Part shown: positions 12,315-64,000 of the stretch, piece by piece | Position numbering within the stretch: position 1 is the stretch's first letter | Layout of the letters: every line of letters starts with the position of its first letter | Assembly: GCA_000004985.1 (NCBI GenBank) | Contig: GG738902.1 | Source: Naegleria gruberi | Taxonomy: Eukaryota | Strand: one strand, 5' to 3' | Length of the DNA: 64,000 nucleotides | Notes under the pieces: model-generated | The model's database searches: none | The model's input: only the letters and a program-made list of their open reading frames with translations | What the model was told of the DNA's origin: nothing | Program-made: the position numbers and the translations under genes

Positions 12315-12785
12315 GTACGCTTCTATCTTTTTCAATGGAACAAGTTGAAATTACCTTCAATTATTTAAAATAGAATCTTTTTGTAGTATTATTTGAATAA
12401 CATTCTTAGCTAAGAACCATTAGATGACAAAAAACCAAAAACCGCCCAGCAAAACCGTTACACCATTATAAATGGTTTTTCAAAAAAAAACACCATCAAG
12501 AATTTATTCTCACCTGCAATGAAGTAACAACGACACACAGGTGCTAGTTTCAAATCCACATCAAATTACCTGTCTAGATGCCCTTTGCCAATTCTCTTTT
12601 ACCAAGAGCAAAGTGAAAGTCCCCAAAAGATGTTTCCACCATAATACAAAAACAAGTAACACATATTTTCATATATGAATAATATCTATTGCAAGATATT
12701 ATAATCACCATCAAACTATTTGACAAATAAAATTAGCCGGCTGGTTTGCCATCATAATATCCAAGTTGGATTTCAAACAACAAAA

Positions 12786-26568: not shown

Positions 26569-26986
26569 TGATATAGTCATTCACATGTGGACATGAAATT
26601 TAATAAAAATTCAAGAAAACAATCTTTTTCTCAATGTTGGAATACATGAAAATTAAGAACTTGTAAGTCCCAATTAATGTAAATTCCTTGTCTGATTTGG
26701 CGAGATATGTTACAATGGAAAAATTCATTAAAATTCATCTGCGTCTCACTTTACTGGTCAGAACTTCTCCCGCCAAATCGTAAACGAGTAACCAATCATA
26801 ACTGTTACGCTTGAAAAATTTACTTTAGAAAAAAAAAACTCAATTCTCTCCCCTCTACACTCTTTCAGTTGTTGTTGCAACAAATTTTTATCGTAGTGAG
26901 GGTTTTTATATATTTTGTATAGTTCATCATCCAAATCCAAATCATCATCAACCACCTTACTTACTATATTATTTATTAAATCGAGA

Positions 26987-35457: not shown

Positions 35458-37509
35458 ATGTTGACCAATCATGGAAAATCCGATAATTCATCTTCAGATG
35501 TTCTGACGATAGGTAATAATAACAACATGTATATCCATTCTGGAGGAGATGATTATTATTTACCTCCATCAGCTGAAAGAGATGACTCTTCAGTTCATTC
35601 TGGATCGGAGAGGAATGATTCATCCATGTTGGGTAGTATACCTGAAGATATCGATGATGATAATCTTGGTATCAAGGAATATGGAAGTTTTGCACCACAG
35701 TCAAAACAAGATTTCTCCTCTCCAGTATCTTTGAGACCTCCAGTTAGATTCCCTACACCTACTGTCCCTCTGCCACCTTCTCGTCCACCAACTCTCCAAT
35801 CTCTCTCTAACCCAAGACCTTCACTCCCACCATCTGTTGCTAATACTACTAATGCAATTTCAACACCATCCCAACAATATCCATCAAGTCCTTCCAATAC
35901 ATTCCAAGAATTCGTATCAGGTGAAGAATACAAGAGACCTGTTATTCTTTCTCCATATGATGATTCACATTTCCATCTTGTTGATGAAAAGAGCCGAGTT
36001 AAACAATCGTCGCCTCCTAAAAAAGCAACCACTTCAACAAGTACCACATCAAAGACAACCAATTCAAGTACTACTAGTAACAGTATTAATTCTACAAATC
36101 ATACATCTGCTGCTGTTACTTCAGTTAAATCATCTAATGGAACAACAACAACATTTGAGCCAAAAAACAATCAAGTAGGTCTAAAGACACTGCTGGCTCA
36201 AAAACAACAACAAATGCAACAACAAAAAGAAGACAAAATGGAAACTGATGAAAAAACAAAGGAAGATAAGAAGGAAGAAAAGGTCAAGGAAGAAAAGCCT
36301 AAAAAAACCACTAAGACATCAAAGAAAAAATCTAAGAAGGATTCAGATTCAGAATCGGAATATGTGGATGAATCGGAATCAGATGAATCAGATAAAAAAC
36401 CATCTAAAAAGACTAAAAAGAAGGAAAAGATTAAGAAACCAACCAAACCAAAAACAACCAAAAAGGAAACTAAAAAAGAGGAAGAGAAAAAGGAAACTAA
36501 AAAGGAAACTAAAAAGGAAACCAAAAAGGAAACCAGATCAAGTAAGAAGGATATTACTATTCCAAGTCCTAAGCGAACACTAGATCCGAGTGGTTCAGAG
36601 AATGAAACCAACGGAGGTGATGAGCCAAAATCTAAAAAGAATAAGATTACATCATCAATAATTGATGAACCAATTACTGCTACTATTACTACTAAACCTA
36701 GTGTGGAGACAATTAGTGCTCCTGTTGTAAAAACTACAAGTCAAATTGTTAAAGAGAAATTAGAGGCCAGAAAGTCTCAAACCAGACCAAACGAAGATCC
36801 TCCAAAGAAGAAATCTGAAACAAAACAAACTCTTGCCAAGAAACAAAAACATACTGCTGATGATAAGATGAAACAAAAGAAGAGTTCAGAGGCAATTTCG
36901 TACTATCTGAGAGCAGGTATCTTGTTTAGTGAAGGTGCTCACTTTTCAAAGGAAGCTTATTTGATTTCATCCAAGGAAAACAAACAAACTTATTTCTTTG
37001 ATGCAGTCAATTTACTACAACAAACTGTTGCCTACTTGAAACAAATTGCTAAAATGGCTCTTCAACATGGTGAAATTCAAAAGGCTGCTCTCACTCATCT
37101 GCTGTTATTCACAACTGTGAAAGTGTGGTTCAAGCTGAAATCAGAAACAATTGTAAAGTATAAGAATTATTTAATGGCAAAAGTTAATGAATTGGGAGGA
37201 GCCTCAACAGGCAATAGTCAATCAACTTCTCCAGCTGTGACATCCCCTCAATCAGTCTCGACTCCTTCACCAATTCATAGCTCCATGAATGCTACAGAAG
37301 GTATTCAGAAAAAGGAAGTGGAAAAACTTTGTAAAGAATTAGACGTTGTTTCCCAACTTGCTGAACAAGAAGATAATTTAAATCTTCAACTCAAGAACTT
37401 TGCTGTATACAGAGAAGATTCCGAACTAATGATTCGTGTCTATCAGGGAGATCTCATGTTTGTCACAATGTTCATTGAAGAAGAATTGATAAAACTAGAT
37501 GTGTTTTAA
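35458..37509 (+). CDS. Low-complexity P/S/T- and K/E-rich protein with a structured C-terminal helical domain (AF4/FMR2 C-terminal-homology-like)
   Basis: 683-codon ORF. The first ~470 residues are proline-rich, then Lys/Glu-rich with KKET repeats. The last ~210 residues (from about 36841) are non-repetitive and helical. Confidence 0.6.
   Translation: MLTNHGKSDNSSSDVLTIGNNNNMYIHSGGDDYYLPPSAERDDSSVHSGSERNDSSMLGSIPEDIDDDNLGIKEYGSFAPQSKQDFSSPVSLRPPVRFPTPTVPLPPSRPPTLQSLSNPRPSLPPSVANTTNAISTPSQQYPSSPSNTFQEFVSGEEYKRPVILSPYDDSHFHLVDEKSRVKQSSPPKKATTSTSTTSKTTNSSTTSNSINSTNHTSAAVTSVKSSNGTTTTFEPKNNQVGLKTLLAQKQQQMQQQKEDKMETDEKTKEDKKEEKVKEEKPKKTTKTSKKKSKKDSDSESEYVDESESDESDKKPSKKTKKKEKIKKPTKPKTTKKETKKEEEKKETKKETKKETKKETRSSKKDITIPSPKRTLDPSGSENETNGGDEPKSKKNKITSSIIDEPITATITTKPSVETISAPVVKTTSQIVKEKLEARKSQTRPNEDPPKKKSETKQTLAKKQKHTADDKMKQKKSSEAISYYLRAGILFSEGAHFSKEAYLISSKENKQTYFFDAVNLLQQTVAYLKQIAKMALQHGEIQKAALTHLLLFTTVKVWFKLKSETIVKYKNYLMAKVNELGGASTGNSQSTSPAVTSPQSVSTPSPIHSSMNATEGIQKKEVEKLCKELDVVSQLAEQEDNLNLQLKNFAVYREDSELMIRVYQGDLMFVTMFIEEELIKLDVF
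36463..36534 (+). repeat. Short tandem coding repeat (12-nt AAAAAGGAAAC[T/C] units encoding KKET)
   Basis: AAGGAAACTAAA / AAGGAAACCAAA is iterated, giving KKETKKEEEKKETKKETKKETKKET. Confidence 0.6.
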
Positions 37510-44561: not shown

Positions 44562-47128
44562 ATGAATTCGTCATCAACATCACCACAACAGGCTCCTCCT
44601 CAAGGCTTTGGAAGTTTTCCTTCCTCCCCTAACAATAACATGTATACACAGCCTCAGCAACAACAATATTCTTCCTATAATAATAGTTTAAATAGTAGTA
44701 ATAGTACTAATAACAACATGATGATGATGAATAGTGTCCACCATCATCAGCCTCTTCCTTCATCTCCTTATAATCAACATCATCATGTGGCATCTCAATC
44801 AAACACCTCACAACAGCAACAGTATTATGATAATAACAATAATTATCAGGAATATAATAGACCACCGAATAATAATAACATGAATCATTCATCATCGATG
44901 AATAATGGTACGATGATTTCACTTCCTAGTCAAAATTCCTCCTATCAGACGTCACCATCACAATATGGCAACAGTAATAACAATAACTTTATTTATAATA
45001 TTCCACCACCATCCACACCACAGCAACCACCACCTCAACAAAATTATCATAATGGAATGCAAGGAATGAGTAGTAGTTCATATCAATTTGCGAATAGTAA
45101 TGGAATGCACAATAGAATGAATAATCAAAATGTGTCACCACCCATGAATCAACAACAAAATCTCGAATCAAGTCCAGAAGAAAATTCGTCATCACCAAAT
45201 GCTGAGCAATTGGGAAATTCGGATTTTCATCCCATCGCCTGTATAAATTGCAGAAAGCAACACAAACAATGGTAAGTTTAGTTATATTTGGAATTAAATC
45301 GATAACATTTTATAGTGGTAAGTATTAAATAAGAGAAATTGATTATTTAATGTTTCGGATATATAATTTAAACCTATCAGATAAGAAATTACCAAGTTGT
45401 CAACGATGTATTTCGAAAGGTATAACTTGTGAATATAAAACGCCTAGAAGAATGAGATATCCAAATCAGTCGAAACAAAAACAACAGCAACAGTCAACTG
45501 AGGAACAGCAACAATCAGAACCAAAGAAGAAGAAAAAGAAAACCGACTCGAAAGATAACCTAACACCAAAATCAAACTCTCCTCTCGATCCAGAAAATGT
45601 TTGTGCTCCAAATACAACTCTCACTAGCAGATTCCCTCAAACTCTCTCAAAAAAGAATATTATTGATATTTATTATAGCATGATATGCGATCACTTTATA
45701 TTTATTGAAAAACCAGTATTGGAAAAGTATATTCTTTCCAAGAGTAATAGTGAAGATGTGGATGATTCAGAATTACCACTCAAGAAGGAAATGCAGACAT
45801 TCTTCTTCTCTGTGACAGCACTAGTGGAACAACGTATGGGAATGGGAGATTTATCTGAAAAATCAGCAAAGAAGGCTAGAGATTGTCTTTCTAAACTTTT
45901 TGATGAAATGAATAACTTTGTAGTTGCCTGTTCGTATGCAAATTTGGGATCATATGAGATTGGATCAGGACGAGTCAAACTATCCAGGTTCTATTTCCAT
46001 AATGCCAAGTTTTACTTTGAAAGTTTGGACGATTCTGAAAAGTCAAGGTTATCAGAGCATGAAAAGGCTCTCCAAAAATACTTGACATCAGTGGAAATTG
46101 TAAATGCAGATAATGATCTAGGAATTTCAGCCATGATACATGACATGCCAAAAGTTTTTCATTTCACCACAGGACATCACTTACCTCAAGAAATTGTTAA
46201 AGCAACTCAACAAGAGGTCAGTCCTTCGAATTGTTTGGACTATCTCAAGATTGTGGAAATGATTGCCTCGTACTTGAACAAGTATTTCAGAGGTATGGCC
46301 ACTAAAACTAGAGGAGAAAAGGAAATGGAAATGTATGACAAGGGTAGTAATCTCTGCCAAGGTTTACTAATGAACGGATTACGTGTAGGTGTCTTGACTA
46401 AGGCAGGGTATGGCAAGGATCTTATTGAAGAGTCTTCTTTGAGAATTACGTATGCGTCCGAGAGTGAATTTTTTCCATTCCTTCCTGTTATTGTAATTCC
46501 ACACGTTGCTCTCGCTGCCCGTATTCACTTACAAATTGTAAAAAAGATTGAAAATGGTACCAGACAAAATCATCAGAAAGGGCTCACTTTCCAAAATACC
46601 GTTGGACCTATTGATTATTTTGATATTCTGGCAAAAGATTACAGATCACTCATTATTCTCTCTAAAAGATTTAAGAGAGTGTCGGTATGTTACGGTTCTC
46701 TCCTTGATGAAATTAAAGAGATTTTAGGTAGGAGAGTTGAAGCTCAGCAAAACAACGACACCACCTCGACAAATAACTCTAATACTGTTACTACCCCAAT
46801 TGCAGATGATGCACTCTTACAGCCACTTTCCTTAGACTCTTCCAGCCTGCCTCCACTGTCCTTCCTTCTAGGTTCTATGAATGATAATCCTTCACTACCT
46901 CAATCTTCAAGCTCTCAAAAATCAACCCTTGATGGATATGCTTCCAACAATTTACAACAAAGCATTTTCAATTCAATAATTCAATCTCCAATCAAATCAC
47001 CCTCACAACAACAAGAGTTGTACTTTGCTGATCCATTCTTTACACACGAAGATTTACAACAAATATTTTCTCCACATACGTATGGCGATTTTGAGGATGT
47101 ATCAGAATATAGTTTTAATGTGAAATAA
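44562..47128 (+). CDS. Zn2Cys6 (Gal4-type) binuclear-cluster transcription factor, three exons including a 2-nt micro-exon
   Basis: Exons: 44562..45271, 45316..45317 (TG), 45381..47128. The total is 2460 nt, or 819 codons plus stop. The ORF-track start at 44532 is TTG. Both donors are GTAAGT (45272 and 45318). Acceptors are TTTTATAG (ends 45315) and CCTATCAG (ends 45380). The product reads ACINCRKQHKQCDKKLPSCQRCISKGITCEY. The N-terminus is Q/N-rich and the C-terminal region is collinear with the minus-strand paralog. Confidence 0.8.
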
Positions 47129-49532: not shown

Positions 49533-51506
49533 TTAATCAGAATCACCAGAATATGATTCATAATCATCGGTTGAAATCATTTCTTGTTCGCGTGGTAAAC
49601 CATTAATGTAATCGGCATAATCTACTCGCAAATATTTGACTAAATGGAAAAATTGAGATCGTAGCATGGTGTTACCTTGAACGAACTCTCGTGCTTCGAT
49701 TTCTACACTATTACAGTTAATTTCTAGTAAACGGATAGCTAGCTCAATTATTCCTGTTTGTATCAGGGCAAGATTCCTCTTATTTTCAATGTCAAAATTA
49801 AGAACTTTCAGTGTTTTAGTTTTGGCTAAAGTAAAGTTGACTGCCTTATCAATATCCAATAGAGCTATTAAACCTGCAAAAATGTAAATGGAACGTTTCT
49901 CCAACATTGCTCGCATTAAAATTTCTACTAGCTTTTCAAGATTAGGTGGCTTAATTCCTTTCACAATATAGTCACAAACTAAATTGATGAGGCAGTTATT
50001 ATTTAGTGGAATCCAAGAGTTTTTGATAGCCAAGCTATAAATAAATTCCATATTTGATACCGCATTGCTTATAGGTTCAATAGCGTCATACATTTGATAT
50101 GAAACAAGTACTCTTGCTGGTCCAGTTAGTTCATTATTTGATCTGAAATAGAAGAGTAATAAATCCGAAATGACTTTCCTTATGTTATCATCCAAAAGTT
50201 GTTTCTCTGAAAGCAGTTGGTGTATGCGTAAACATAGAACCAATCGACCAGCCATTGTTTCTGGAAGTACGGTTTTCCAAGTTATAAATCCAGGTATTAA
50301 AGATTTAACAGCTAGCACCATCCTTTCCGTCATTCCTAATATTATTAAAATGGTTTCTATGAATTTGAAATACTCAGATTCAAGTGGATATTTTACAATA
50401 TTAGAAATTATACTTGTCAATTCGTCATCCTTAATCATCTTGTTAGTTAATTCCATTGTAGCACACAAAAAATTAAGAAATGGTTCAACATCCTCAGGTG
50501 TTTCCACTTTAAATTCAATCGTACCGTTGTAAATTACTTCCAAACATGACTGATCGAGCATAATTTGGTCCAAATGATATGGTAAACCTAGTAATAAAAT
50601 TTTTCTAATGGAATATGGAGCATTTTCGAGAATCTCTTTGATATAGAAATTTCCGAATGTTTCATCGCTGAAAAGGGCACATTTCATGGCTATTTCTCGT
50701 AAATCTAACAACTCTGTAGCATCCCCAATAATTCTAAAATAATGTGCAATGAATGCACTAAATTTGAGTTTTTCAACAACTTTCAAAGCTTTTCTTAATC
50801 TTTGATTGTGTTCTTCATTTCGTTCCAAATCACTAATAGCATCAAACTCTTGATTTAGAAAAGCAAATGTTGGAAACGGACAACTATGAGCATAGATTCG
50901 GAGTATGTCTATTAAATTCTCATCTGGTTCTACGTCAATTCTTTCATATAATAGTTGGAATAAGTTTTGCAACATTGGTTCATTTTTGGTTGTACGAACA
51001 ATTCTAAGGTCTGCATACTTTGAAAGTAATTTTTTTTCTCTTGTTGTCCATTTTGGACACATTGCCTTGTCATTCCAATATTTTTCATTATAATGTGACA
51101 AGAAATCAATTAACTTGATGTAAAAAACATGAGAAAGAGTAGCACCTTCAGTATTCATACACGCCCAGACAGCATGAAAATACCAATACGGTACCACATG
51201 TTCATACTTAGTATTTGGAAACAGAAAATTGTCCCTTGTCTCCTTATAGTCATCCAAAAATCGATAAACCAACTGGCCAGCACCACCAAGGTTGATCACT
51301 TTAAATAAATTTGTAATATCATCATCGTCACTCCAAGAAATTTCCGTAAATGTTTCTTCATCTTCCATCATGTCATTTTGAACAATATCACACAACAGTT
51401 CATAGCTTGTGTAAATGTCTCCCCCAGGCAGCTCATCGGACAGTTGTGACTTGTGCAAATGTTCCTTCAGAGCATCACGGTTAGGTCCATCACGAAGTTT
51501 GAACAT
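49533..51506 (-). CDS. Large hypothetical protein (helical-repeat-like), no recognised domain
   Basis: 657-codon uninterrupted ORF whose ATG follows an A8 run. Confidence 0.6.
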   Translation of the reverse strand: MFKLRDGPNRDALKEHLHKSQLSDELPGGDIYTSYELLCDIVQNDMMEDEETFTEISWSDDDDITNLFKVINLGGAGQLVYRFLDDYKETRDNFLFPNTKYEHVVPYWYFHAVWACMNTEGATLSHVFYIKLIDFLSHYNEKYWNDKAMCPKWTTREKKLLSKYADLRIVRTTKNEPMLQNLFQLLYERIDVEPDENLIDILRIYAHSCPFPTFAFLNQEFDAISDLERNEEHNQRLRKALKVVEKLKFSAFIAHYFRIIGDATELLDLREIAMKCALFSDETFGNFYIKEILENAPYSIRKILLLGLPYHLDQIMLDQSCLEVIYNGTIEFKVETPEDVEPFLNFLCATMELTNKMIKDDELTSIISNIVKYPLESEYFKFIETILIILGMTERMVLAVKSLIPGFITWKTVLPETMAGRLVLCLRIHQLLSEKQLLDDNIRKVISDLLLFYFRSNNELTGPARVLVSYQMYDAIEPISNAVSNMEFIYSLAIKNSWIPLNNNCLINLVCDYIVKGIKPPNLEKLVEILMRAMLEKRSIYIFAGLIALLDIDKAVNFTLAKTKTLKVLNFDIENKRNLALIQTGIIELAIRLLEINCNSVEIEAREFVQGNTMLRSQFFHLVKYLRVDYADYINGLPREQEMISTDDYESYSGDSD

Positions 51507-52847: not shown

Positions 52848-55004
52848 TTGACCAAACTATTCAATAATATTGAGGAACAATTTAGTAGTAAACAACTCTC
52901 CAAAAGAGAACAACGAAAAACATCTCAACTCAACGTTAATGATCCTAAATTTTGTGAGTTGGATATTGAAATCGTTCTTAAGTGTTTTCCAGAAATTAAA
53001 CCTGCAAGCTTTATTTTAGAAACCATATTACAGGAACAAAATGAGTATCCTCTTGATGTACGTTATATGGTAGCATTAGCAGTGGCCAAATATGATGTTG
53101 GAACTCAAAATATTTATGATATTGTCAAATTAGTTGGTAATTTGCCAGAGTTTGGTAATTTAAAATTACGCGATGCCATGAATTCTGACACAGTAATAAG
53201 ATGTATTGTTGAGATTGGATTATGTGTTAAAGTTGCACTTTCTTTAATCCTAAGTGAATCTTTGGATTTGTTGTGGTCTTGTGATGAAACAGAGGATCAT
53301 TATAGAAGATTTCTTGCCATTACAGCACATGGAATGTTGAAAGACAAACCCTGGCATTTTGTTCTTGGTTTATCCGAAATTAGTGATCATGCCAGCGTAA
53401 ATATTGGTTGCAAATCTGGAATATTGACACAATTCAATAATCAAAGAAGACTGGATTATAAAGAAACTGATCCTTATGGTGTCACAGTATTGGAAGATTG
53501 TATATTTTTGAGTTGTGCTGATCATACGGTTGCTTTAGCGGCTAAAAGAGCTCACAAGCAAATGGCAGAGATATGCAAGGAGTTTAAAGTATATGATCCA
53601 ACAAAAATTCCTCCGTGCTATCTTAGTATTATTCATTACATTACTTCCGTGATATCATCTAAGTTCAGAACTACTTCCAAAAACAAATATCTTGCATTCG
53701 AAAGTAAGTGGAAATTAAAAAGTAGACCAATGGTCTGTGTAGATGAAATAAGATATTGCTCAGTTGATATTGTAGCAAACTTGATTGTTGAGAGATTATA
53801 TTTTTTTAAAAGTATTAGAAGATACATCACTGACAAAAAGTTGTATGAGGTATTGATGTTATTGGATAGAAAAGAAATAGTGATGATGTTGTGTGTTAGT
53901 TCTTGCATGTGGACATCTCTTTACTCCAAATATATGAAGAGTGGTTCCATTATTTCCTCTTCCAGTTATTATTTGGAATATTTGGAAAAGCTTACAGCTA
54001 TCATTTCAAATCCAAATAATTATTCCTATATATTGAATGTAACTTTTGAAATAACACCAGAGTTATTTCGGGAATATTATAACTCAACTAAATCCTTAAC
54101 TTTGAATATTCCTTCACTAATATCAGGTCAAATAGAATATGAAAATAATATCTTGCCACTCAATCAATTTGAAGAGCAAATTGGTAAAAGCCTTGTTCAA
54201 AATAGAGCTATAGAACAAGACAAAGTTGCAGTTCTGATATTAGAAGAGTCGTCAGAAGATAATATAGAGCATGTAGATATTAGTTGCATTGGTAATGTTC
54301 AAGAAAACCTATTTATGAGGTTCGGTGAAGCAATCATCTCTGGAAATGTTACTTCCTTAGTGGATTATATTACCAAAAATAATTATGCTACAGAAAAGTT
54401 GTACTCAGATTTCATTACAGCAACAAATAGATTGTGTGAAAGAACATTCTCCACTGTGAAATATGCTCTTGATGATAATTCTAGAACCAGAGCACTGGTA
54501 ATCGAGTCAATAATATTAGTCAGGCAATTTCCATTAGACTTGAATGTCAGTAGCTTTTCTCCATTATTTGAATTCAAAAAGAAAGCTAGAGTATTGCTAG
54601 ATTCACAACAAACAAGAAAAGAGATCGCCTCGGAGAAGGTGGTCATTGAATTAAAACAGGCTGAAGAAGAATCCCAAAAAGTAGCAAAGAAGCACTCTCA
54701 ACAGTTAGAAGGAGAGTTGACAGATCAATTATTGAGAGTATGTGGAATAACATTAGATACCAATCTCAAACCTTATACTAACAAATGGTACGCATTGGTA
54801 GTAGATAAAATTAAAAAACACTACAATGGAAAGAAGAAGAAGAAATGGAGGAAAACTTTTCGGAAAAAGAGTGATTATGTACAATTTTTGGCACAAATTG
54901 CACTTGAAGAGGAGAATAGATTGTGGAGAGAAGGGTTGCCATCATCACAGTCTGATTACTCACAACAAAATGCGTTCACAATCGAGGAACCAAGTACACA
55001 ATGA
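52848..55004 (+). CDS. hAT-family transposase-like protein (domesticated gene or element remnant); no ATG at the 5' end of the open frame
   Basis: The frame is open from 52770; the first start-like codon is TTG 52848 and the first ATG is about 74 codons in. hAT-like motifs include FLAITAHGMLKDKPWHFVLGLSEISDHASVNI (insertion-domain/RNase-H region) and FLSCADHTVALAAKRA (C-x-x-H block). The C-terminal NRLCERTFSTVKYALDDNSRTRALVIESIILVRQF resembles the hAT dimerisation motif (S-E-R-x-F-S...R..L). Confidence 0.5.
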   Translation: MTKLFNNIEEQFSSKQLSKREQRKTSQLNVNDPKFCELDIEIVLKCFPEIKPASFILETILQEQNEYPLDVRYMVALAVAKYDVGTQNIYDIVKLVGNLPEFGNLKLRDAMNSDTVIRCIVEIGLCVKVALSLILSESLDLLWSCDETEDHYRRFLAITAHGMLKDKPWHFVLGLSEISDHASVNIGCKSGILTQFNNQRRLDYKETDPYGVTVLEDCIFLSCADHTVALAAKRAHKQMAEICKEFKVYDPTKIPPCYLSIIHYITSVISSKFRTTSKNKYLAFESKWKLKSRPMVCVDEIRYCSVDIVANLIVERLYFFKSIRRYITDKKLYEVLMLLDRKEIVMMLCVSSCMWTSLYSKYMKSGSIISSSSYYLEYLEKLTAIISNPNNYSYILNVTFEITPELFREYYNSTKSLTLNIPSLISGQIEYENNILPLNQFEEQIGKSLVQNRAIEQDKVAVLILEESSEDNIEHVDISCIGNVQENLFMRFGEAIISGNVTSLVDYITKNNYATEKLYSDFITATNRLCERTFSTVKYALDDNSRTRALVIESIILVRQFPLDLNVSSFSPLFEFKKKARVLLDSQQTRKEIASEKVVIELKQAEEESQKVAKKHSQQLEGELTDQLLRVCGITLDTNLKPYTNKWYALVVDKIKKHYNGKKKKKWRKTFRKKSDYVQFLAQIALEEENRLWREGLPSSQSDYSQQNAFTIEEPSTQ

Positions 55005-55092: not shown

Positions 55093-55989
55093 TTATAACA
55101 AATCTATTGAAGATACCAGTGAATTGTACATGAATAAAAACATTTCATCACTCAGTTTGGAGGAATCAGCACCAAATTCACTGAGTGTTTTCAGGGCAAT
55201 ATTGTGTTTGGTTTTGATTAATGATGCTGAAAGTTTTACAGAGAGAGGAATTAATATTTCTCTCAGTTTGGCAACATTTGAATCTGAAATATTATTCTTC
55301 ATCCAATATAATGCAAATTCCAATAATTTCATCTCACCAAACACAACCTTTTGATCCTGATATTCCTCAATAAAACCAAGCATCATACTCTCATCAAAAT
55401 AATTAATATACATTGATAACTTCCAGGAACTTGTAAACTTGGTTTTTAATCTGGTTTCCATCTCTGGGATTGCAAAAGTTTTAGCCAAATAGTACAATTT
55501 GAAAAAGTGTTGCACATAATCACCATCTACCAACTTGTCAAGAAGAAAGTTTGTCAATTTAGGAATTCCCATCAAAATTGAAAGCCTAATCGCATCAATA
55601 ACATTATCCAAAGAATGATCGAGCAAATGGTCCCTCTCCTCTGCTTCGTACAAATAGAGCATTACATATTCAAAAGCCTCTCTATTATACACTTTGAGAT
55701 CAACTTGAATTGTTTTTGATTGATTTTCATCGGAGGTGATGATCATTGCATCGGAATGTTCTTCCTTCTTTTCATCATCATGATTAGTTGTTATATTATT
55801 ATTATTATTACTAGTAATATTAGAATTATTTGTTGATGATTGTTGCGTTAACTTTTCTAAAAAGTAAAGAGAAGAGACAATTATTGAAGAGTGAGCATAA
55901 TATTTGATCGGATCAGATAAAAGTTGTGGAAAGAGTAATACTACGTTATGATCACTTTCATTATTGAATTTCAACTCTTGTGAAGACAT
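55093..55989 (-). CDS. BTB/POZ-domain-like protein
   Basis: 298-codon ORF whose ATG follows an A8 run. The BTB-like region reads SDHNVVLLF...IKYYAHSSIIVSSLYFLEKL...TIQVDLKVYNREAFEYVMLYLYEAE. A helical BACK-like region follows. Confidence 0.6.
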   Translation of the reverse strand: MSSQELKFNNESDHNVVLLFPQLLSDPIKYYAHSSIIVSSLYFLEKLTQQSSTNNSNITSNNNNNITTNHDDEKKEEHSDAMIITSDENQSKTIQVDLKVYNREAFEYVMLYLYEAEERDHLLDHSLDNVIDAIRLSILMGIPKLTNFLLDKLVDGDYVQHFFKLYYLAKTFAIPEMETRLKTKFTSSWKLSMYINYFDESMMLGFIEEYQDQKVVFGEMKLLEFALYWMKNNISDSNVAKLREILIPLSVKLSASLIKTKHNIALKTLSEFGADSSKLSDEMFLFMYNSLVSSIDLL

Positions 55990-56075: not shown

Positions 56076-57596
56076 ATGAGCGGTCAATCTGTGGTGATTA
56101 CTCTGGTTGATCATCCTCAACAGGACCATCAATATTTATTTAATCTTCTCTTTCAAAAGATGCAACACCAAATCAAAGGCTTTGTCCGTTGGTTTGAAAG
56201 GCGGGAAAATATTTTAAATGAAATTCGAGTAAATAATAATAATCGTGATGATGATCATGATGAATATTTCATTCCGAAACCCTTCTCTGTATGGATTGAA
56301 AAGGAGGAAAATTTAAAGAAAGAAATGGGTTTTTTACCAATTGAATTTTCGTTGGATAATGCAAGTCTGGTGGCTTATACGATTGTTGCAACTCTTTTCT
56401 CATTGTCGTCCAATATGTTTGAAATTGTCGTATTCAACAAGAATGAATGTACTAGTGAGAGGAGTGAAGGATTTCTTCTCACGAGCCTACTTTTAGATCA
56501 AAATGAGGAGGAGTTTATTGAAAGTTTTCCCAATGAATTGATTGGTTCGAAAGAATTTATGAAGAAAGCTGTCGAAATGTGTGGAACTATTGTTAGGTGT
56601 GAGTGTTTGAATAAGGAGTTTTTGCAGGATCGTGATTTTGTGTTAAGGGCTGTGAATAATGCACCAATTTCCCTCTTGGAAGAGATTCCACTTCAATATA
56701 GAAATGATGATGAGATTGTTTTTAAGAGTTGTTCATTCATCCCAGCATGGGATGCAGAATTAATGTCAGATCGTTTAAAGAGCGACAAATCTTTCCTTTT
56801 AAAGGTGATTGAGAACGATCCTCCCATCTTTAAGTGTATTAGTCCAGAACTAAAAACCGATACAGATTTCATTATGGAATGCCTTGATAGGGCTGGCACT
56901 ACGCTATTTGATTACATTCCCGACTGGATTTTAGAATCAATCGTTAAGGATATCAATATATTGAAATCAGTTTCCTCCAAACGATTTATAAGGGATTATT
57001 TTGCACGAGCTGCCTCTAAATTCCTCCCCCATGAAGTAATTATTGAACTTTCCAATGACAGAGAGTTTGCCTATCAATGCATTAAGAATCAATCAACAGC
57101 TGCTTCATTCTTCTCACCAGATATTAGAAAAGAAATAGAATTTATCAAACTATCCAAGAATTTGAACATTGCCCCAGATAAGACAGTATTAGATCGTGAA
57201 TTCCTGAAAGAAATGTATAGCTTGGACATTCAAAATTTCCACTACATGCCAGACGAGCTCAAGAATAACAAAACCTTTGTTTTGGAGTTGATGGAAATCA
57301 ATGGATTAGGTTTGGAATTTCTCTCTTCTTCCCTAAGAACTGATCATGACATTATCCAACGAGCAATTCAACAAAATGGTTCCTCCCTCAATGTTGCCCT
57401 AACTAAAGAAAGACGAAACAAGAAACTTCAAGAAATGGCAACCGAAACTAGTGGCTATTTCGAATATTTACATGCTGACAACATGAAATTCTGGAAACAC
57501 TTTAATTTAAGATTGGAGAAGGAGTACTTTGGATTTGACATTCCCAAACGTTTTTGTTCAGTAGCAGCGTTACACAAAAAGTACCAACTTGATTGA
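56076..57596 (+). CDS. DUF4116-repeat protein
   Basis: 506-codon ORF whose ATG follows an A9 run. It has iterated repeats of about 48 residues (FLQDRDFVLRAVNNAPISLLEEIPLQYRNDDEIV; LKSDKSFLLKVIENDPPIFKCISPELKTDTDFIMECL; ELKNNKTFVLELMEINGLGLEFLSSSLRTDHDIIQRAIQQNGSSL). Confidence 0.8.
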   Translation: MSGQSVVITLVDHPQQDHQYLFNLLFQKMQHQIKGFVRWFERRENILNEIRVNNNNRDDDHDEYFIPKPFSVWIEKEENLKKEMGFLPIEFSLDNASLVAYTIVATLFSLSSNMFEIVVFNKNECTSERSEGFLLTSLLLDQNEEEFIESFPNELIGSKEFMKKAVEMCGTIVRCECLNKEFLQDRDFVLRAVNNAPISLLEEIPLQYRNDDEIVFKSCSFIPAWDAELMSDRLKSDKSFLLKVIENDPPIFKCISPELKTDTDFIMECLDRAGTTLFDYIPDWILESIVKDINILKSVSSKRFIRDYFARAASKFLPHEVIIELSNDREFAYQCIKNQSTAASFFSPDIRKEIEFIKLSKNLNIAPDKTVLDREFLKEMYSLDIQNFHYMPDELKNNKTFVLELMEINGLGLEFLSSSLRTDHDIIQRAIQQNGSSLNVALTKERRNKKLQEMATETSGYFEYLHADNMKFWKHFNLRLEKEYFGFDIPKRFCSVAALHKKYQLD

Positions 57597-57749: not shown

Positions 57750-58832
57750 ATGGAAGAGTGTAACATCATCATTGAACCTTTTGCCTATGGCCTCGATAAC
57801 AGCTCTGCTTTATCTACAACAACTAGAAATGTTCATTATTTTTCTCTGAGCGCCTACGGTGTGACCATGTTGATGGCCATAGCACTGTTATTATTTATGG
57901 CAGTGTTACTTGTTAGGAAAGGTCATTCTATGGTTTCGAACAAAAAGTTGCTGTACCTCTTGACCATCTTTTTGAATATTATTCAGGTTGTGGCCATAAT
58001 GTCAGGAGTTGGACATTCGGTGAGCAAGTTGACAAATGCTGCAGAGGTGGTTGGTCAGGCCTTTTTCATGATTCACTACGAGACGATTATTATAACATTA
58101 TTCTTATCAATTATTTGCCAGAGTATGACAACAAAGGTTTTCTATACTGTTTATTTTGTTGGAAAGAGAAGAACAAAGCTCCAGACCTTTCTTAAACATT
58201 ATGCAATTATCAATGCAATTATTTGGACTATTTTGGTTTCCTTGTTAGTGATAACAATCTTTTTCACCTTGATGGCATACTACTTTCCTGGTGTGAATCA
58301 GGAAATTGCCAAAGATGCTGCTGTTGATAGGTTTTATGTTGATGCTGCTGTTGGTTGTTTTTACATTATTTCTGTAACTGTCACAGGAAGTGTCAATATT
58401 GCTTTGGTTGTTTATCTTATCAGATCAATCAGGGAGTCAGCTGCTAGATGTGGGCTTAAACCAAGTGAAGAACAGAACACTGCATCTAAAAAATTAATTG
58501 CTATCAGTATTAGTCAATTATTTCTTGGAATTGGAATGGGATTAACAACATTTTTATTCATTTTAGGATTATTGGATTATATTGCATTTGCAGTTGCAAG
58601 TCACTTGCAAAGAATACTGGTATTCGTTTATTCTTTGTTGGTAGTTTTCACTTTTGGGCCTCTGGATGATTTGAATAAGCACCTTTCCTCAAATTCTCAA
58701 CTTAAAACCATTGCTTCTCCAACTTCTCCACAAAGAGCAAAAACCAAATCAGAATCACCAGAAACTGAATTGAAAGGATTTGATATTGCATCACCCTCAA
58801 TCAACCATTCAAATGTTGTTAGTAGTGTTTAA
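57750..58832 (+). CDS. Seven-transmembrane (GPCR-like) membrane protein, family unassigned
   Basis: 360-codon ORF with seven hydrophobic helices of about 20-28 residues and a Ser/Pro-rich cytoplasmic tail. Confidence 0.6.
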   Translation: MEECNIIIEPFAYGLDNSSALSTTTRNVHYFSLSAYGVTMLMAIALLLFMAVLLVRKGHSMVSNKKLLYLLTIFLNIIQVVAIMSGVGHSVSKLTNAAEVVGQAFFMIHYETIIITLFLSIICQSMTTKVFYTVYFVGKRRTKLQTFLKHYAIINAIIWTILVSLLVITIFFTLMAYYFPGVNQEIAKDAAVDRFYVDAAVGCFYIISVTVTGSVNIALVVYLIRSIRESAARCGLKPSEEQNTASKKLIAISISQLFLGIGMGLTTFLFILGLLDYIAFAVASHLQRILVFVYSLLVVFTFGPLDDLNKHLSSNSQLKTIASPTSPQRAKTKSESPETELKGFDIASPSINHSNVVSSV

Positions 58833-58862: not shown

Positions 58863-61800
58863 TTAATCAGCTAATTGCCTATTAGATGGTTTGATTTTAG
58901 TGGAAATTTCCCACAAATCTTCATCTGAATGATGAATAAGACGAGGCAATTCCTCAGTAAAGACGAATTGAAGATAGGCCAATTCTTGGAAGTCATAATT
59001 GAGACACAATTGTTGTAGGGAAGCAACACGCTCCAATGTCTTGAGGAGAATTCTCATCATCTTGTAATTAATTACCTTCTTGTTTGGACTTTTTGGATGG
59101 TCTAACAGTGGTTTGTTACCTTCCTTTGTGAATAAAACTTGACTTTGAAAGCTTCCTAAATATGGAACACATGGTAATTGTTTTTCTGACAAACTGTCAT
59201 ACATGGCAGCAATTTCCTTCGAATTGATAACCTTCTTTTGACAATCTTCCAATTCTTGATAAAGTTTGTGAACTTCCTTATTGTCTTCATAAAGCTCCTT
59301 GATTCTATAGACAGAGGTGGATCTGAGAGCTCCTAACAATGCCATAAATCCGAAAAAGTTGTTTTGTTGATAGCATGACTGAGCTGAACACAAGACTTTT
59401 GTGAAAACCTTCTTTCTATCTCTGTCATTTGTTTGAACAAGTACCATTTCGTTCGCCCAATGTTGAACCAGTTTGAAATGCTCTTGCATGAATAGAATAT
59501 TACTGCTGTACTTTTCTCTAATTTCCTTATCCTTGCTTTCAATATAGTAAAATTCGTAAGGTTTGATTTTGAGGAAGAATTTAGCCTCCAATAGAGTAAG
59601 TTGATGAGCAATCTCGTTGGAAGGCCAAGCTACAATATCAAAAGTAATTTTGAACGGATTGGTAATACGTTGAGTAGTAAAGTACAATTCTCTATCGTGA
59701 TTCCACTTTGACATTGGAATTTGTGGAGTGGATACCATTTGAAGTGTCAATCCTTTTGGAAGAATGAGTGTCTTGTCTGTTGATTGATCTCCATCTTGTC
59801 CAGGGCTTGTAATGTTACAACGAGAGCCTGAAGATGCCTGAATGGACAAGACATTCAATAAGAGGGCATTTTGAATCTTGGCAATACTGGAACTGCTACT
59901 ATCTGACATGTGTTCAATTTCCCGCATGAAATTAATACTCTTTGCAATACTTAAATTGTTAAAAGCATAAAAACCATCCTTGATTAATCTGGCTGCTGTT
60001 CTTTCTAAATTAATCTTGGCAATAAACAAATTGTCCTTCTTGGAGGAGTCCATCTTTGATTGTTGATTCAAGTGTTTGTACTTGGAAATGAGAATATCAA
60101 TAATGTGCTCTGGAGAACTAAATAAATTATATGTCAAGTAGAACATTTGAGAAAAGTTTTCAGTATTTTCAATATCATTCTCTGGATTAAATCCTAAAAT
60201 CTTATTAATGGATGCTTCCAATGTTGCTGCCTTGAGAGATTTAGATTCCAAATCGACAATGTAGTCCTCAGGTTCGGCTTCATTAATATTGCTAATGGAA
60301 GATGCCTCTATTCTACTCAAATATTCACTCAATAAAATATCACTACAGTTAGCACAGTGTGCTCTGAACACATCTGTATCATAGTCCAAGTCGTTTGCAT
60401 CTGGACAAAAGACCAACAAGCTGTGAGATTTTTCCATGAACATTAATAAAGCAATGAGTAATCTAAACTTGTTTTCCTTCTTTAAGAATTTCATAGACAA
60501 GTCTCTTGAATTACTAATTTCATGAACACTGATTCTCTCAGCAAAGTTGGTAATAAGCTCTGTCATGACACTTTTAACCATTATAAAGCAAGTATTACCA
60601 TCATGTCTTAAAAGTGAGTGAATGACTGTGTGTCGAATGAGTTGAATTAGTTTGTATAATAGTGCCTCAACAGTATCATCATCTGCTGCACTATCTGAAA
60701 CATTTTCCAAAACAGAAATCAAGTGCTTGGTCATACCTCCTTCCTTTCCTATAAATAAGTTAAAGATTAAATAGACCACAATTTGATAAGATTTGCTAAC
60801 AAAGTCAAGCTTTTTGGATTGTTGTTCAGATCTCTCTTTTGAAATACCTCTGAATGAAAGTACAACATTCTTGAAAAACTTTAAAACGTAAAATATAATA
60901 CTAATGTCATTCAGATCGTTAGCAAAATAGAGGGTCTTTTTCTTCCACCACTCAATCAAGGTATCTCTATTACAATTTCTCATGGTCCACAACATGATAG
61001 TACTCAGAATAATATTAATTTCGTTGAATTGTTTGAGTTTGAGCAAAAGTTCTTCTCCTTTGGTAAAGAAGTTGTCAACTAATGAATTAAATAAAATTCC
61101 AATGACTCGCTCACGTTGTTCCCTCGATTGATATCTTTCATCATAATCAATCTTGATGAAAAGATCAAGGAAATATTTGGCTGTCTTGAAAATTATCTTT
61201 TCATTGCCAGCCTCAATTGATTCCAAGAAGAAAGTAATGAGCTTGCTTACGAATGCGTTTTCCTTTCCAGCAGTGTCCAAATCCCAAATAGAGTGATAAT
61301 CTGTAATAATAGCCAAAGATTCACTCAATAATCTAGAAGCAGTATCCTTGGAAGTGCATCGATTTACCTTTTTACAATAAAAATCAAAAACACCAGCCGA
61401 TTCAGAATACCCCAAAAATGGAATTAAATCTCTGATAAATAGAGCAATATTTCTGTTACAGTAAACTACCAAATTATTGTTAGCTGCATTGTTGGTACCT
61501 AACAGTTTTTCCATTCCTTCAAAAAGTAATTGGATAAGACTCTTTGAAAGTTGAATAAGATCTGCCTCTTCATAATTTTTAACACCTTTGGATTGTGCAA
61601 CAAGGAGACTCTTAATAGCCATATCGAAAATAAACCAAGAATATCTGCATGACTCTGATTCAACACTGATATCGTCTTGTTGCTTTTGCTCCTTGCTATG
61701 CATGTAGAGAATGAATAAACTCAACAATTTGCAATGTAAAGTTTCATAATTAAATACATATTTCACATATCCAGAGAAAAATCTATTACCACGAGAGCTA

Positions 61801-63989
61801 TTTCCACACAAGTCATGGAAGTGGTTCATACAAGTTACCAAGGCATCAAATGTTCTCACCTGAAGGTCTGATCTAATCTTCTCATGAGTAGCTATATCCT
61901 TGACGAATTGGTCACTATCGGAATAGTTCAGAATTTCTAGAAGAATATCAAATATCAAGTACATGTATGGCATACACAAGCTGAAATCTATCAATACAAT
62001 CTTGTTGTATAAGTGATAAACAATATATTCTAGAATGGCTGATTTTTGAAGAGATGTACTCTTTGTAAATGCATTATAAGCAGCAAATAATAATTGCAAT
62101 CTTTCATCGGGTGGTTGAATAGTAGAGACAAGATTTGCATCAATTTTGAGTTTGGCTTTTTCAGTAAGTTTGTTAGACATCAAGTCCTTCTCACTGGCTG
62201 ACAAGTAACCAGGATTTAGTTTTGAATAAATCATCAATGTCTCATTAGTAACACTTTGTCTAATTGCCATATAATTCACAAGTAAATCACCAAATATTGT
62301 CTTATCTGCTTCATAGACAGAATTCTTTGCTGCCAATGGTAAGAAGGCATAACCAAGAATGTTTCTATTAGAAGAACCGAAATGAGCATTTCTAATATCT
62401 AGGGAGTCCATATATTTTTGAACTTTACCTTTAGAATCCTCAACATCAATACTGTAGAATGTAAATAACAAGTGATGGCCTGCAGTAATGTTTTCAGAGG
62501 TGAGTCCCAACAAGTCAACCTTAATTTCATCAACAAAGTGTACATTTTTCTTTGTATTGTTGGCGAGACTGGAGAATTGATATCTTTGTAGTTTGTTATT
62601 GTATTTTCCAATCAATCGTTTCAACATTTTGCTCTCAGTATTGGTAGTAGAGATAAAATCTTCTGGAGATGGCTTAGAGAGATCATTTTCTCTTACAGCC
62701 ACTTCAATTAGTAAATGTTTACATGATTTAACTCCTCCCAACCGAGCAAACTTTAAATGAATGTACATCATGTTCTTATAGACCATATTTGGATATCTTG
62801 ATTTTGTCCAAGGAATTTCTTCAATAATATCTTCATTCATTTCCTCTTCTAGCATTAAATTGGATTTGTTTCTTCTCTTTTGTGATTCTGTACTTCTACG
62901 GTGAGGTGAATCTGGACGGAATGGGTCTGTCCTCTCTTCATCCCAGAAATCCAATGAGAATGTATCATCCTCAATGTAACTAGATTGTTTAGTGAGAGTT
63001 GAACGAGAGAATGAACTCTTCCAATCCTTTTCCAATCTCGACTCGATAGTAACTTTACCTTTGATATGGTAAGCTTGAAGTCCGTTGTGTGAACTCTGAG
63101 GATCCAAATGTTTCAATAGAGTGATAATGTTAAATGTTTCAATATTGGCATCCACAATGATTGGATAAAACCTTTCCAAAACAATCTTATTAAAATTCAA
63201 ATCAATCTTGGTGTCATCAATATTTTCCGAGAAGAAGGATGAGCTCATTGAGTTTGAGGCTGTATTGCTGAAACTATTATTTAAACTTGTACCTTTCTTT
63301 TGTGCGAAAAGTTTACAAAATCCTAGCAAGAAGGACTGTTCAAAGTGAGCTAAAGTTTTCCTTCTCTCATCATTAGTATTATTCTTCCTGTCCTTTGAAG
63401 AACCTCCAAGTTCTTCTGCGGCCTCTTGTACTGTACTATGGGGAGCAATTCGTCTCACAACAAGAACACAATAAACTTGATCATGTGGATAACTAACATG
63501 GAAAGTTTTTTCTTGCACAATTGTTGGAGGCATTCTCAAATGTTCTTGTGCAGATGGAGGAAGAGTTGAAAGTTGAGCCTCCGTGAGGAAATTAAAATAC
63601 CAGTCCTCACTAATCTTCCTCTCAGTCTTGCAATCATACAACGAAAGGGAGAATGTGAATAATTCTCTCGAATCAACCATCAATGAAAAATCAGACACAG
63701 ACAGAGTAATAGTAATCTTGCTCTTGACAGGAAACTCGAGAGATGGCAATGTCCTATGGCACAGAATTAAATCCAAAGGTTTGTACTCATAGTATGGTTT
63801 GAGAAGCATCATTAACCTCTCTTCCAGAATTTCATTCTTGATATTCATGTCAGCAGCTGTTGGAGCACTACTCAAGATTGCATTTCCAAATTTGGCAGAC
63901 AATCTTCTATTTCCGTTAACTGAATATGTGAGCTCGTTGATAAATGTAACCATTTCATCATTTAAATTTTCCTTGGTAAGATCCTCCAA
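58863..63989 (-). CDS. DOCK-like (DHR-1 C2 plus helical scaffold) protein ending in RasGEF_N and RasGEF (Cdc25-homology) domains; 5' end may lie beyond the window
   Basis: 1708-codon uninterrupted ORF. Its first codon is TTG and the frame stays open to the window edge. The DHR-1-like region (about 62330-62800) reads YKNMMYIHLKFARLGG...LLIEVAVREND...VHFVDEIKVDL...HHLLFTFYSIDVED...LGYAFLPL. DOCK mid-region motifs are CRYSWFIFDMAIKSLL, NRNIALFIRDLIPFL, IKIDYDERYQSREQRERVIGILF and LWTMRNCNRDTLIEWW. The RasGEF_N-like region (about 60050-60260) reads LKAATLEASINKILGF...MFYLTYNLFSSPEHIIDILISKY. The RasGEF region (about 58920-59670) reads EIAHQLTLLEAKFFLKIKPYEF...NNFFGFMALLGALRSTSVYRIKELY...LPCVPYLGSFQSQVLFTKEGN. 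Confidence 0.8.
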   Translation of the reverse strand: MEDLTKENLNDEMVTFINELTYSVNGNRRLSAKFGNAILSSAPTAADMNIKNEILEERLMMLLKPYYEYKPLDLILCHRTLPSLEFPVKSKITITLSVSDFSLMVDSRELFTFSLSLYDCKTERKISEDWYFNFLTEAQLSTLPPSAQEHLRMPPTIVQEKTFHVSYPHDQVYCVLVVRRIAPHSTVQEAAEELGGSSKDRKNNTNDERRKTLAHFEQSFLLGFCKLFAQKKGTSLNNSFSNTASNSMSSSFFSENIDDTKIDLNFNKIVLERFYPIIVDANIETFNIITLLKHLDPQSSHNGLQAYHIKGKVTIESRLEKDWKSSFSRSTLTKQSSYIEDDTFSLDFWDEERTDPFRPDSPHRRSTESQKRRNKSNLMLEEEMNEDIIEEIPWTKSRYPNMVYKNMMYIHLKFARLGGVKSCKHLLIEVAVRENDLSKPSPEDFISTTNTESKMLKRLIGKYNNKLQRYQFSSLANNTKKNVHFVDEIKVDLLGLTSENITAGHHLLFTFYSIDVEDSKGKVQKYMDSLDIRNAHFGSSNRNILGYAFLPLAAKNSVYEADKTIFGDLLVNYMAIRQSVTNETLMIYSKLNPGYLSASEKDLMSNKLTEKAKLKIDANLVSTIQPPDERLQLLFAAYNAFTKSTSLQKSAILEYIVYHLYNKIVLIDFSLCMPYMYLIFDILLEILNYSDSDQFVKDIATHEKIRSDLQVRTFDALVTCMNHFHDLCGNSSRGNRFFSGYVKYVFNYETLHCKLLSLFILYMHSKEQKQQDDISVESESCRYSWFIFDMAIKSLLVAQSKGVKNYEEADLIQLSKSLIQLLFEGMEKLLGTNNAANNNLVVYCNRNIALFIRDLIPFLGYSESAGVFDFYCKKVNRCTSKDTASRLLSESLAIITDYHSIWDLDTAGKENAFVSKLITFFLESIEAGNEKIIFKTAKYFLDLFIKIDYDERYQSREQRERVIGILFNSLVDNFFTKGEELLLKLKQFNEINIILSTIMLWTMRNCNRDTLIEWWKKKTLYFANDLNDISIIFYVLKFFKNVVLSFRGISKERSEQQSKKLDFVSKSYQIVVYLIFNLFIGKEGGMTKHLISVLENVSDSAADDDTVEALLYKLIQLIRHTVIHSLLRHDGNTCFIMVKSVMTELITNFAERISVHEISNSRDLSMKFLKKENKFRLLIALLMFMEKSHSLLVFCPDANDLDYDTDVFRAHCANCSDILLSEYLSRIEASSISNINEAEPEDYIVDLESKSLKAATLEASINKILGFNPENDIENTENFSQMFYLTYNLFSSPEHIIDILISKYKHLNQQSKMDSSKKDNLFIAKINLERTAARLIKDGFYAFNNLSIAKSINFMREIEHMSDSSSSSIAKIQNALLLNVLSIQASSGSRCNITSPGQDGDQSTDKTLILPKGLTLQMVSTPQIPMSKWNHDRELYFTTQRITNPFKITFDIVAWPSNEIAHQLTLLEAKFFLKIKPYEFYYIESKDKEIREKYSSNILFMQEHFKLVQHWANEMVLVQTNDRDRKKVFTKVLCSAQSCYQQNNFFGFMALLGALRSTSVYRIKELYEDNKEVHKLYQELEDCQKKVINSKEIAAMYDSLSEKQLPCVPYLGSFQSQVLFTKEGNKPLLDHPKSPNKKVINYKMMRILLKTLERVASLQQLCLNYDFQELAYLQFVFTEELPRLIHHSDEDLWEISTKIKPSNRQLAD

Positions 63990-64000
63990 TTTTCTTTCCT

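Follow-up and report, generated by a model that had tools for sequence, protein, structure and literature searches.

Near one end of a 64,000-nucleotide stretch of Naegleria gruberi DNA (GenBank assembly GCA_000004985.1, contig GG738902.1; hereafter, the window), we identified a gene for what is probably a multidomain guanine nucleotide exchange factor (GEF) of at least 2288 amino acids, in which a genuine DOCK-C/D scaffold carries an SOS-like REM–Cdc25 module in the position of DHR-2, and which belongs to a conserved protein family. DOCK proteins have been described with an invariant DHR-1 plus DHR-2 core, to which only SH3 or PH domains are added (PMC5499878). A protein that keeps the whole DOCK scaffold and exchanges its catalytic domain for one of another GEF superfamily runs against this view. 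The layout that we propose comprises a C2-like region, DHR-1 and ARM repeats (about 1050 window residues), followed by about 185 helical residues, a short acidic linker and REM–Cdc25. A preliminary description of the same DNA had suggested that a Rho-GEF family scaffold was re-equipped with a Ras-family GEF, and profile searches support this proposal, in that they find DHR-1/DOCK similarity and no bona fide DHR-2. The features of the gene are listed below, with residues counted along the open reading frame (ORF) within the window.

58863..64000, minus strand: coding region, C-terminal 1708 amino acids plus stop (ORF scan, identity to the full-length protein)
62790..63821, minus strand: N-terminal DOCK-C/D-type region, residues 57–400 (hhalign to SPIKE1, PDB profile match to DOCK6)
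62103..62786, minus strand: DHR-1 (DOCK-type C2), residues 402–629 (Pfam PF14429, alignment with SPIKE1 DHR-1)
60849..62102, minus strand: ARM-repeat region with demonstrable DOCK homology, residues 630–1047, containing CRYSWFIFDMAIKSLL, NRNIALFIRDLIPFL, DYDERYQSREQRERVIGILF and LWTMRNCNRDTLIEWW
60297..60848, minus strand: helical tail, residues 1048–1231, which prolongs the solenoid and is conserved in the family
59850..60263, minus strand: REM (RasGEF_N), residues ~1243–1380, with beta-hairpin start YIVDLESKSLKAATL and REM motif NFSQMFYLTYNLFSSPEHIIDILISKY
58887..59663, minus strand: Cdc25-homology RasGEF catalytic domain, residues 1443–1701 (Pfam PF00617, PDB matches, Foldseek)
59115..59174, minus strand: catalytic helical-hairpin motif PCVPYLGSFQSQVLFTKEGN, residues 1606–1625 (alignment with SOS)

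A single reading frame crosses the domain junction

The reading frame ends at a TAA stop (58863–58865) and comprises 1708 codons without interruption on the minus strand (58863–63989); no stop occurs in the same frame across the final 11 nt up to the window edge. Its translation is 100% identical to residues 581–2288 of a 2288-residue N. gruberi protein, which stands in the database as 'rasGEF domain-containing protein [Naegleria gruberi]'. Because the frame is open at the edge and matches residues 581–2288, the gene is cut by the window edge; the TTG start in the ORF listing is artefactual, and the true start lies outside the window. The N-terminal 580 residues, which also lie outside, are of low complexity, poorly conserved and without a Pfam domain. 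The fusion can thus be seen without recourse to a gene model, as the preliminary description had held, since the 1708 codons run uninterrupted across the junction.

The C terminus is a REM–Cdc25 module

By both sequence and fold, the C terminus is a complete REM–Cdc25 module of the RasGEF family. Pfam RasGEF (PF00617) matched residues 1459–1646 with an E value of 3.5e-34, and 7 residues separate the end of the Cdc25 fold from the stop; a RasGEF_N motif and a full Cdc25 domain running to the stop had been recognized at the outset. The top PDB sequence matches of the C-terminal fragment were SOS1 and SOS2 (E ~1e-19), followed by RasGRF1, yeast Cdc25 and RalGPS1, and then by RasGRP and Epac2. An AlphaFold2 model of residues 1040–1708 had a predicted local distance difference test (pLDDT) score of ~80–95 through REM and Cdc25, and Foldseek superposed it on SOS1 REM–Cdc25 crystal structures with target-normalised template modelling (TM) scores of 0.74–0.77 over ~490 columns. 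A disordered insert of ~25 residues separates REM from Cdc25.

The catalytic hairpin is present: its stretch 'SQVLFTKEGN' aligns with the SOS counterpart, and its F, G and N do not vary within the family. We take its L and E to be the equivalents of SOS1 L938 and E942. REM lies N-terminal to Cdc25, as in the RasGEF family. Pfam RasGEF_N matched residues 1273–1337 with an E value of 0.003 and 18.2 bits, below the cut-off of 28.3, and scored above the cut-off in eight paralogues and relatives; the REM motif NFSQMFYLTYNLFSSPEHIIDILISKY (residues 1278–1304) aligns with SOS2, and the superposition on SOS1 includes this domain. Among the three Naegleria orthologues (those of N. gruberi, N. fowleri and N. 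lovaniensis), identity reached 78% in REM–Cdc25 versus 62–67% elsewhere. No other segment is so well conserved, which points to purifying selection acting on the catalytic module.

The scaffold is related to DOCK-C/D proteins

We built a profile of residues 51–1250 from the three Naegleria orthologues and compared it exhaustively, using HMMER, with 1.84 billion representative proteins. This search returned 39 proteins at E<=1e-3, which form two disjoint sets: proteins with DOCK-C2, REM and RasGEF, and canonical DOCKs with DHR-2. None carries both RasGEF and DHR-2. The canonical matches, which span profile positions ~512–954 and thus the ARM region, include grapevine SPIKE1, Balamuthia 'DOCK9/6/10' and a crinoid DOCK7-like protein, together with DOCKs of Diphylleia, Chlorokybus, Closterium and one choanoflagellate. 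When ten family members were aligned with 14 canonical DOCKs using hhalign, the probability was 100% and the E value 2.9e-92 over 854 aligned columns, with the N. gruberi protein (P0001) residues 637–1627, or residues 57–1047 in window numbering, placed on SPIKE1 129–1043. In this alignment CRYSWFIFDMAIKSLL falls on SPIKE1 AMAWFFLELIVKSMAL, NRNIALFIRDLIPFL on LNSSLAFFCYDLLSII, DYDERYQSREQRERVIGILF on EFDSRYQKHEDKLYIAQLYF and LWTMRNCNRDTLIEWW on ILQIVRNLDDASLVKAW. The mid-region motifs that the preliminary description regarded as characteristic of DOCKs lie where it had placed them, and all four match their canonical DOCK counterparts at each alignment column.

A helical-region profile built from nine family sequences also matched human DOCK6, with an E value of 2.3e-13 over ARM residues 931–1175 and weaker collinear pieces at 720–741 and 1259–1304. 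TPR_DOCK9 appears in the precomputed Pfam annotation of other family members; TPR_DOCK and DOCK_N gave no Pfam match at E<=1 in the N. gruberi protein. An AlphaFold2 model of residues 621–1270 (pLDDT 80.5, predicted TM score 0.74) was all alpha-helical to about residue 1231, and Foldseek searches with it returned generic solenoids only, such as importins and CRM1. An ARM solenoid with conserved motifs is thus found between DHR-1 and the catalytic domain, as in DOCK proteins. These sequence comparisons assign the scaffold to the DOCK-C/D (SPIKE1/zizimin) type, with an extra N-terminal C2-like region.

This N-terminal region is itself similar to DOCK-C/D proteins. The hhalign match begins at SPIKE1 residue 129, and in a PDB profile search residues ~105–250 matched DOCK6 residues ~280–418 with an E value of 1e-4, so that a C2-like (DHR-3) domain is present upstream of DHR-1. 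The C2-like (DHR-3-like) block lies within residues 57–400 and carries the motif LSLYDCKTERKISEDWYFNF (residues 115–134). In DOCK6, the C2/DHR-3 domain sits between an N-terminal domain (segment 44–256) and DHR-1 (PMC13503879). Pfam DOCK-C-D_N and PH domains had no match in the N. gruberi protein.

The DHR-1 block noted in the preliminary description as C2-like was found by Pfam as DOCK-C2 (PF14429) at residues 402–629 (E 1.4e-21, 77.7 bits against a cut-off of 33.6), and it aligns with the DHR-1 of SPIKE1. Four basic residues in its beta1/L1-loop region (K413, R416, K421 and K424) are invariant among the three orthologues. DOCK8 R581 is needed for PI(4,5)P2 binding (PMC7893821). K424 falls at the 'RN' position that R581 occupies, in a loop where the alignment is uncertain, and the basic residues may, with the same uncertainty, be the equivalents of DOCK8 R570, K576 and R581 (PMC7893821).

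DHR-2 is absent

The C-terminal DHR-2 that marks DOCK proteins, with its lobes A, B and C, is missing from the N. gruberi protein, in agreement with the preliminary description, which had seen no DHR-2 hallmarks. Pfam DHR-2 lobes A, B and C gave no match at E<=1 in this protein, nor did they match any of the 12 proteins and fragments of the family that were scanned, whereas a canonical DOCK used as positive control (P0013) matched with E values of 1e-23 to 1e-30. We then ran unfiltered (--max) a custom DHR-2 hidden Markov model (HMM) built from 14 canonical DOCKs. Five held-out DOCKs scored 98–472 bits, and all 13 family members scored at or below 0.2 bits (N. gruberi protein, -0.1 bits). Comparison of residues 1040–1255 with SPIKE1 1030–1847 by hhalign gave a probability of 0.3%, and comparison of REM–Cdc25 with DHR-2 likewise gave 0.3%.

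The residues that join the ARM region to REM form a helical tail (1048–1231), which is conserved within the family, for example at K-x-E-x-K-[WF]-R-x-L-L. With relaxed settings, hhalign detected no similarity between the tail and either the C-terminal ARM repeats of DOCKs or DHR-2 lobe A; the best path of the tail, which is not significant, runs through the ARM part preceding DHR-2. The tail is followed by an acidic, low-confidence linker of ~11 residues. We infer that the swap point lies at this flexible linker, reminiscent of the ARM/DHR-2 hinge.

These results revise the earlier account of the junction in three respects. The mid-region motifs had been said to precede DHR-2 immediately in DOCKs; ~300–350 residues of ARM in fact follow them, given that the 'LW..RN....WW' motif stands at 1259–1304 in DOCK6 and near residue 1020 in SPIKE1, with DHR-2 starting at 1587 and near 1389, respectively. 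RasGEF_N had been placed ~170 residues after the last motif, whereas REM starts ~230 residues after it (residue 1243 versus 1015). The DOCK layout had been extended over ~1150 residues; it is demonstrable to residue 1047, and the solenoid from there to about residue 1231 has no detectable DOCK similarity.

A conserved family in heterolobosean amoebae

The architecture recurs in other species. The N. fowleri and N. lovaniensis orthologues (2443 and 2429 residues) have the same architecture and are each 66% identical to the N. gruberi protein. N. gruberi has a second member of 2358 residues (D2VK39/XP_002675540), and further paralogues of 2501 and 2521 residues occur in N. lovaniensis and N. fowleri, respectively. 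D2VK39, FDP41_010725 and FDP41_012438 of N. fowleri, C9374_010383 and C9374_005870 of N. lovaniensis, Willaertia magna KAL9644000 (2096 residues) and Acrasis kona KAL0488222 (2000 residues, named 'RasGEF') all share the domain order with full-length homology. Within the family, the clade of the N. gruberi protein in the window has the shortest ARM-plus-tail (620 residues versus 673–894) and the weakest REM score. A survey of other protists had been proposed in the preliminary description, and its outcome in N. fowleri, N. lovaniensis, Willaertia and Acrasis indicates that the fusion is not a one-off.

The same architecture was found in four proteins from Logan assemblies of public sequencing runs (P0010, P0011, P0021 and P0077) and in a JGI metagenome protein taken together with its upstream neighbour (P0018). 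Four contigs with family genes, L001–L004 (Logan SRR26196974, SRR32315873 and SRR22387979; JGI 3300062135), have G+C contents of 51, 46, 28 and 38%, and this spread points to several different source organisms. L001 carries nothing but a complete 2100-residue ORF between short flanks and may be an assembled transcript. On L002 and L003, the intergenic gaps beside the family gene are as short as 1–12 nt.

The extent of the family depended on the search used. A homologue search with the full ORF returned the three orthologues only, its word prefilter being too insensitive for the family, and one with the ARM alignment returned only a 354-residue N. fowleri fragment; it was the exhaustive search of representatives that exposed the family. 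A search with P0021 added one member, P0077, and distant insect DOCK9s.

Several gene models in the family are incomplete. The N. fowleri fragment (P0004, FDP41_011184, 354 residues, on a 47-kb contig) stands alone, is 68% identical to part of the ARM/tail region (profile positions 868–1097) and contains no domain known to Pfam; it could represent a haplotig of the N. fowleri orthologue, a partial duplicate of it or a pseudogene. In N. lovaniensis, one member is split into adjacent DOCK-C2 and RasGEF models (P0008 and P0012, C9374_001132/001133), and its N. fowleri counterpart is a single protein of 2521 residues. On L004 (7774–12649), a DOCK-C2 half and a RasGEF half lie 40 nt apart. In both pairs, the split was probably introduced during annotation, where an intron or a frameshift interrupts the gene.

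The occurrence of a conserved multi-paralogue family in Naegleria, Willaertia, Acrasis and other sources indicates that the catalytic swap is old and has been maintained by selection. Since it is shared by Naegleria/Willaertia and Acrasis, the swap predates their split, and the duplications came afterwards. Naegleria is reported to possess canonical Dock and Zizimin genes as well (PMC3620097, PMC5499878), and the DOCK–RasGEF family is therefore an addition to them and not a replacement.

Alternative explanations

We considered whether the fusion could be an artefact of assembly or gene modelling that joined two adjacent genes. Split models are known, namely C9374_001133 with C9374_001132 and the two adjacent calls on L004, but these run the opposite way, with one gene cut in two. 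A single uninterrupted ORF crosses the junction in the window, L001 holds a continuous ORF of 2100 residues, and the architecture is also continuous in N. fowleri, N. lovaniensis, Willaertia and Acrasis. On the basis of the ORF across the junction and the same architecture in relatives, we reject an artefactual fusion, to which we assign a negligible probability. Virtually no weight is left either for an N-terminal part that is not DOCK-derived and combines an unrelated C2 domain with a generic helical repeat. The generic solenoids from Foldseek and the lack of a Pfam TPR_DOCK match would favour such an origin, but it is ruled out by the sequence evidence: the 854 collinear hhalign columns, the HMMER matches to SPIKE1 and other DOCKs across the ARM region, and the match of the family profile to DOCK6, with which the listing of TPR_DOCK9 in family members agrees. 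It is also very improbable that a degenerate or cryptic DHR-2, or at least its lobe A, persists between ARM and REM, which would make the protein a dual Rho/Ras GEF or preserve the DOCK dimer. A DHR-2 spans ~450 residues, and the stretch from the end of DOCK homology (residue 1047) to the first REM strand (residue 1243) offers only ~195. These gap residues (1048–1242) are predicted to be helical, and the models contain no lobe-B-like sheet and no lobe B/C fold; the model of residues 621–1270 thus answers the suggestion, made with the preliminary description, that structure prediction be used to look for a cryptic DHR-2. The Pfam lobes are silent, the custom HMM falls at -0.1 bits against 98–472 bits in controls, and the best path of the tail on SPIKE1 lies ahead of DHR-2.

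The most serious competitor, although we judge it unlikely, is a pseudo-GEF or pure scaffold, in which either Cdc25 is inactive or the DOCK part is a non-functional remnant that no longer senses lipids. Several observations weigh against an active, lipid-directed exchange factor. The clade in the window is the most divergent of the family, with 20–29% identity to other members, a sign of fast evolution; the REM score of the N. gruberi protein is under the Pfam threshold; and the clade differs at several otherwise conserved family positions. Some RasGEF motifs are changed ('KMMR' for 'KRR', 'LY' for 'TW'), the equivalence of the DHR-1 residues with those that bind PIP2 in DOCK8 depends on an uncertain loop alignment, and the order of PDB matches (SOS, RasGRF, Cdc25/RalGPS, RasGRP/Epac), which is headed by Ras-specific GEFs, gives only a weak hint of Ras as the substrate. 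Against inactivity, REM–Cdc25 is the part best conserved among the three orthologues, the hairpin L/F/E-G-N is kept along with the family-invariant W, R, N, R and P..P positions, the basic residues of DHR-1 are invariant in the orthologues, and the predicted fold is complete. We therefore favour an exchange factor that combines a DOCK-C/D scaffold with a working REM–Cdc25 module.

Proposed mechanism and implications

Such a protein would probably act as a phosphoinositide-targeted Ras-family GEF. By analogy with other DOCKs, DHR-1, and perhaps the N-terminal C2 domain too, would bind phosphoinositides and recruit the protein to the plasma membrane; we infer lipid binding from the basic residues kept in the L1-loop region. 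The ARM solenoid could serve as a regulatory or partner-binding platform, and the Cdc25 hairpin would open the nucleotide pocket of a Ras/Rap-family GTPase. In this way, lipid signals that activate Rac/Cdc42 via other DOCKs would here load a Ras-family switch. The DOCK homodimer interface is formed by DHR-2 lobe A (PMC13503879), and because lobe A is absent the canonical DOCK dimer has probably been lost.

If the protein is active, it would show that the DHR-1/ARM scaffold can work apart from DHR-2, be it in membrane targeting, autoinhibition or partner binding, and that Ras instead of Rac can come under DOCK-type control. A broader proposal is that heterolobosean amoebae, and possibly other protists, possess an ancient, diversified class of 'DOCK-Ras GEFs', in which the lipid-sensing/ARM scaffold of DOCKs has been rewired from Rho to Ras; we regard the chances of this as evenly balanced. 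If it is true, the DOCK scaffold would be a portable regulatory module independent of DHR-2, and the class would provide these amoebae with a direct phosphoinositide–Ras link unlike those described in other motile cells. Ras–PIP3 circuits power both movement and feeding in the amoeba Dictyostelium. Amoeboid protists commonly shuffle domains among their signalling proteins, and a DOCK/RasGEF swap is to that extent less surprising; it is still notable, and the arrangement has outlasted the separation of species and the duplication of genes in a deep branch of the eukaryotes. One family member belongs to the pathogen N. fowleri. Counts of Naegleria 'DOCK' genes that are based on the C2 domain alone would take in Ras GEFs.

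Other genes in the window

The window has a G+C content of 33.5%, and its composition and the genes nearby are typical of a gene-dense protist chromosome. A single ORF of 1165 residues (26915–30412, plus strand) encodes a pyruvate phosphate dikinase (PPDK_N, PEP-utilizers and PEP-utilizers_C) with a C-terminal adenylate kinase (ADK, residues 988–1141, E 1.7e-48), a fusion that would couple the handling of AMP and ATP. The 918-residue ORF at 12720–15476 (plus strand) ends in half a protein kinase domain (profile positions 1–127 of 258), which suggests an intron/exon boundary near 15476 and not a true stop. The plus strand also encodes a DUF4116-repeat protein with five repeats (56076–57596, E 2e-43) and a 1564-residue protein full of EGF_2/teneurin-like EGF repeats (5896–10590). 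Long ORFs of the window without a Pfam match include those at 57750–58832, 55093–55989, 52848–55004, 49533–51506, 45350–47128 and 35458–37509.

Comparison with known systems

In the literature that we searched on DOCK and RasGEF proteins of Naegleria and Heterolobosea, we found no description of a DOCK-scaffold/RasGEF architecture. The family is apparently undescribed, and its sequences are already public under the automatic names 'RasGEF domain-containing protein' and 'C2 DOCK-type domain-containing protein'.

The N-terminal part has its counterpart in the DOCK-C/D proteins (human DOCK6/7/8 and DOCK9–11, plant SPIKE1; 'zizimin-related' CZH). The C2-like region, DHR-1 and the first ~420 residues of ARM are homologous and stand in the same order, conserved ARM motifs are held in common, and the helical fold matches the DOCK ARM domain. 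Judged from these alignments, the protein shares ancestry with DOCK-C/D proteins over ~1000 residues. It differs from them in having a low-complexity N-terminal extension of 580 residues, in the replacement of the ~300–350-residue C-terminal ARM of DOCK6 and SPIKE1 by a family-specific helical tail of ~185 residues, and in lacking DHR-2 lobes A–C, hence the Rac/Cdc42 catalytic site and the lobe-A dimer interface. Because DHR-2 is one of the features that define DOCK GEFs, the N. gruberi protein should not be filed as a DOCK Rho-GEF.

The C-terminal part is instead comparable to SOS1 and SOS2, and also to RasGRF1 and yeast Cdc25. The upstream context is different, being a DOCK scaffold here and histone-fold/DH-PH domains in SOS, PH-IQ-DH in RasGRF and SH3 in Cdc25, and the N. 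gruberi protein has in addition the disordered insert between REM and Cdc25. SOS is its best PDB sequence match, though identity is only ~19–20%, and the two share the bipartite REM–Cdc25 fold in which the REM and hairpin motifs are kept.

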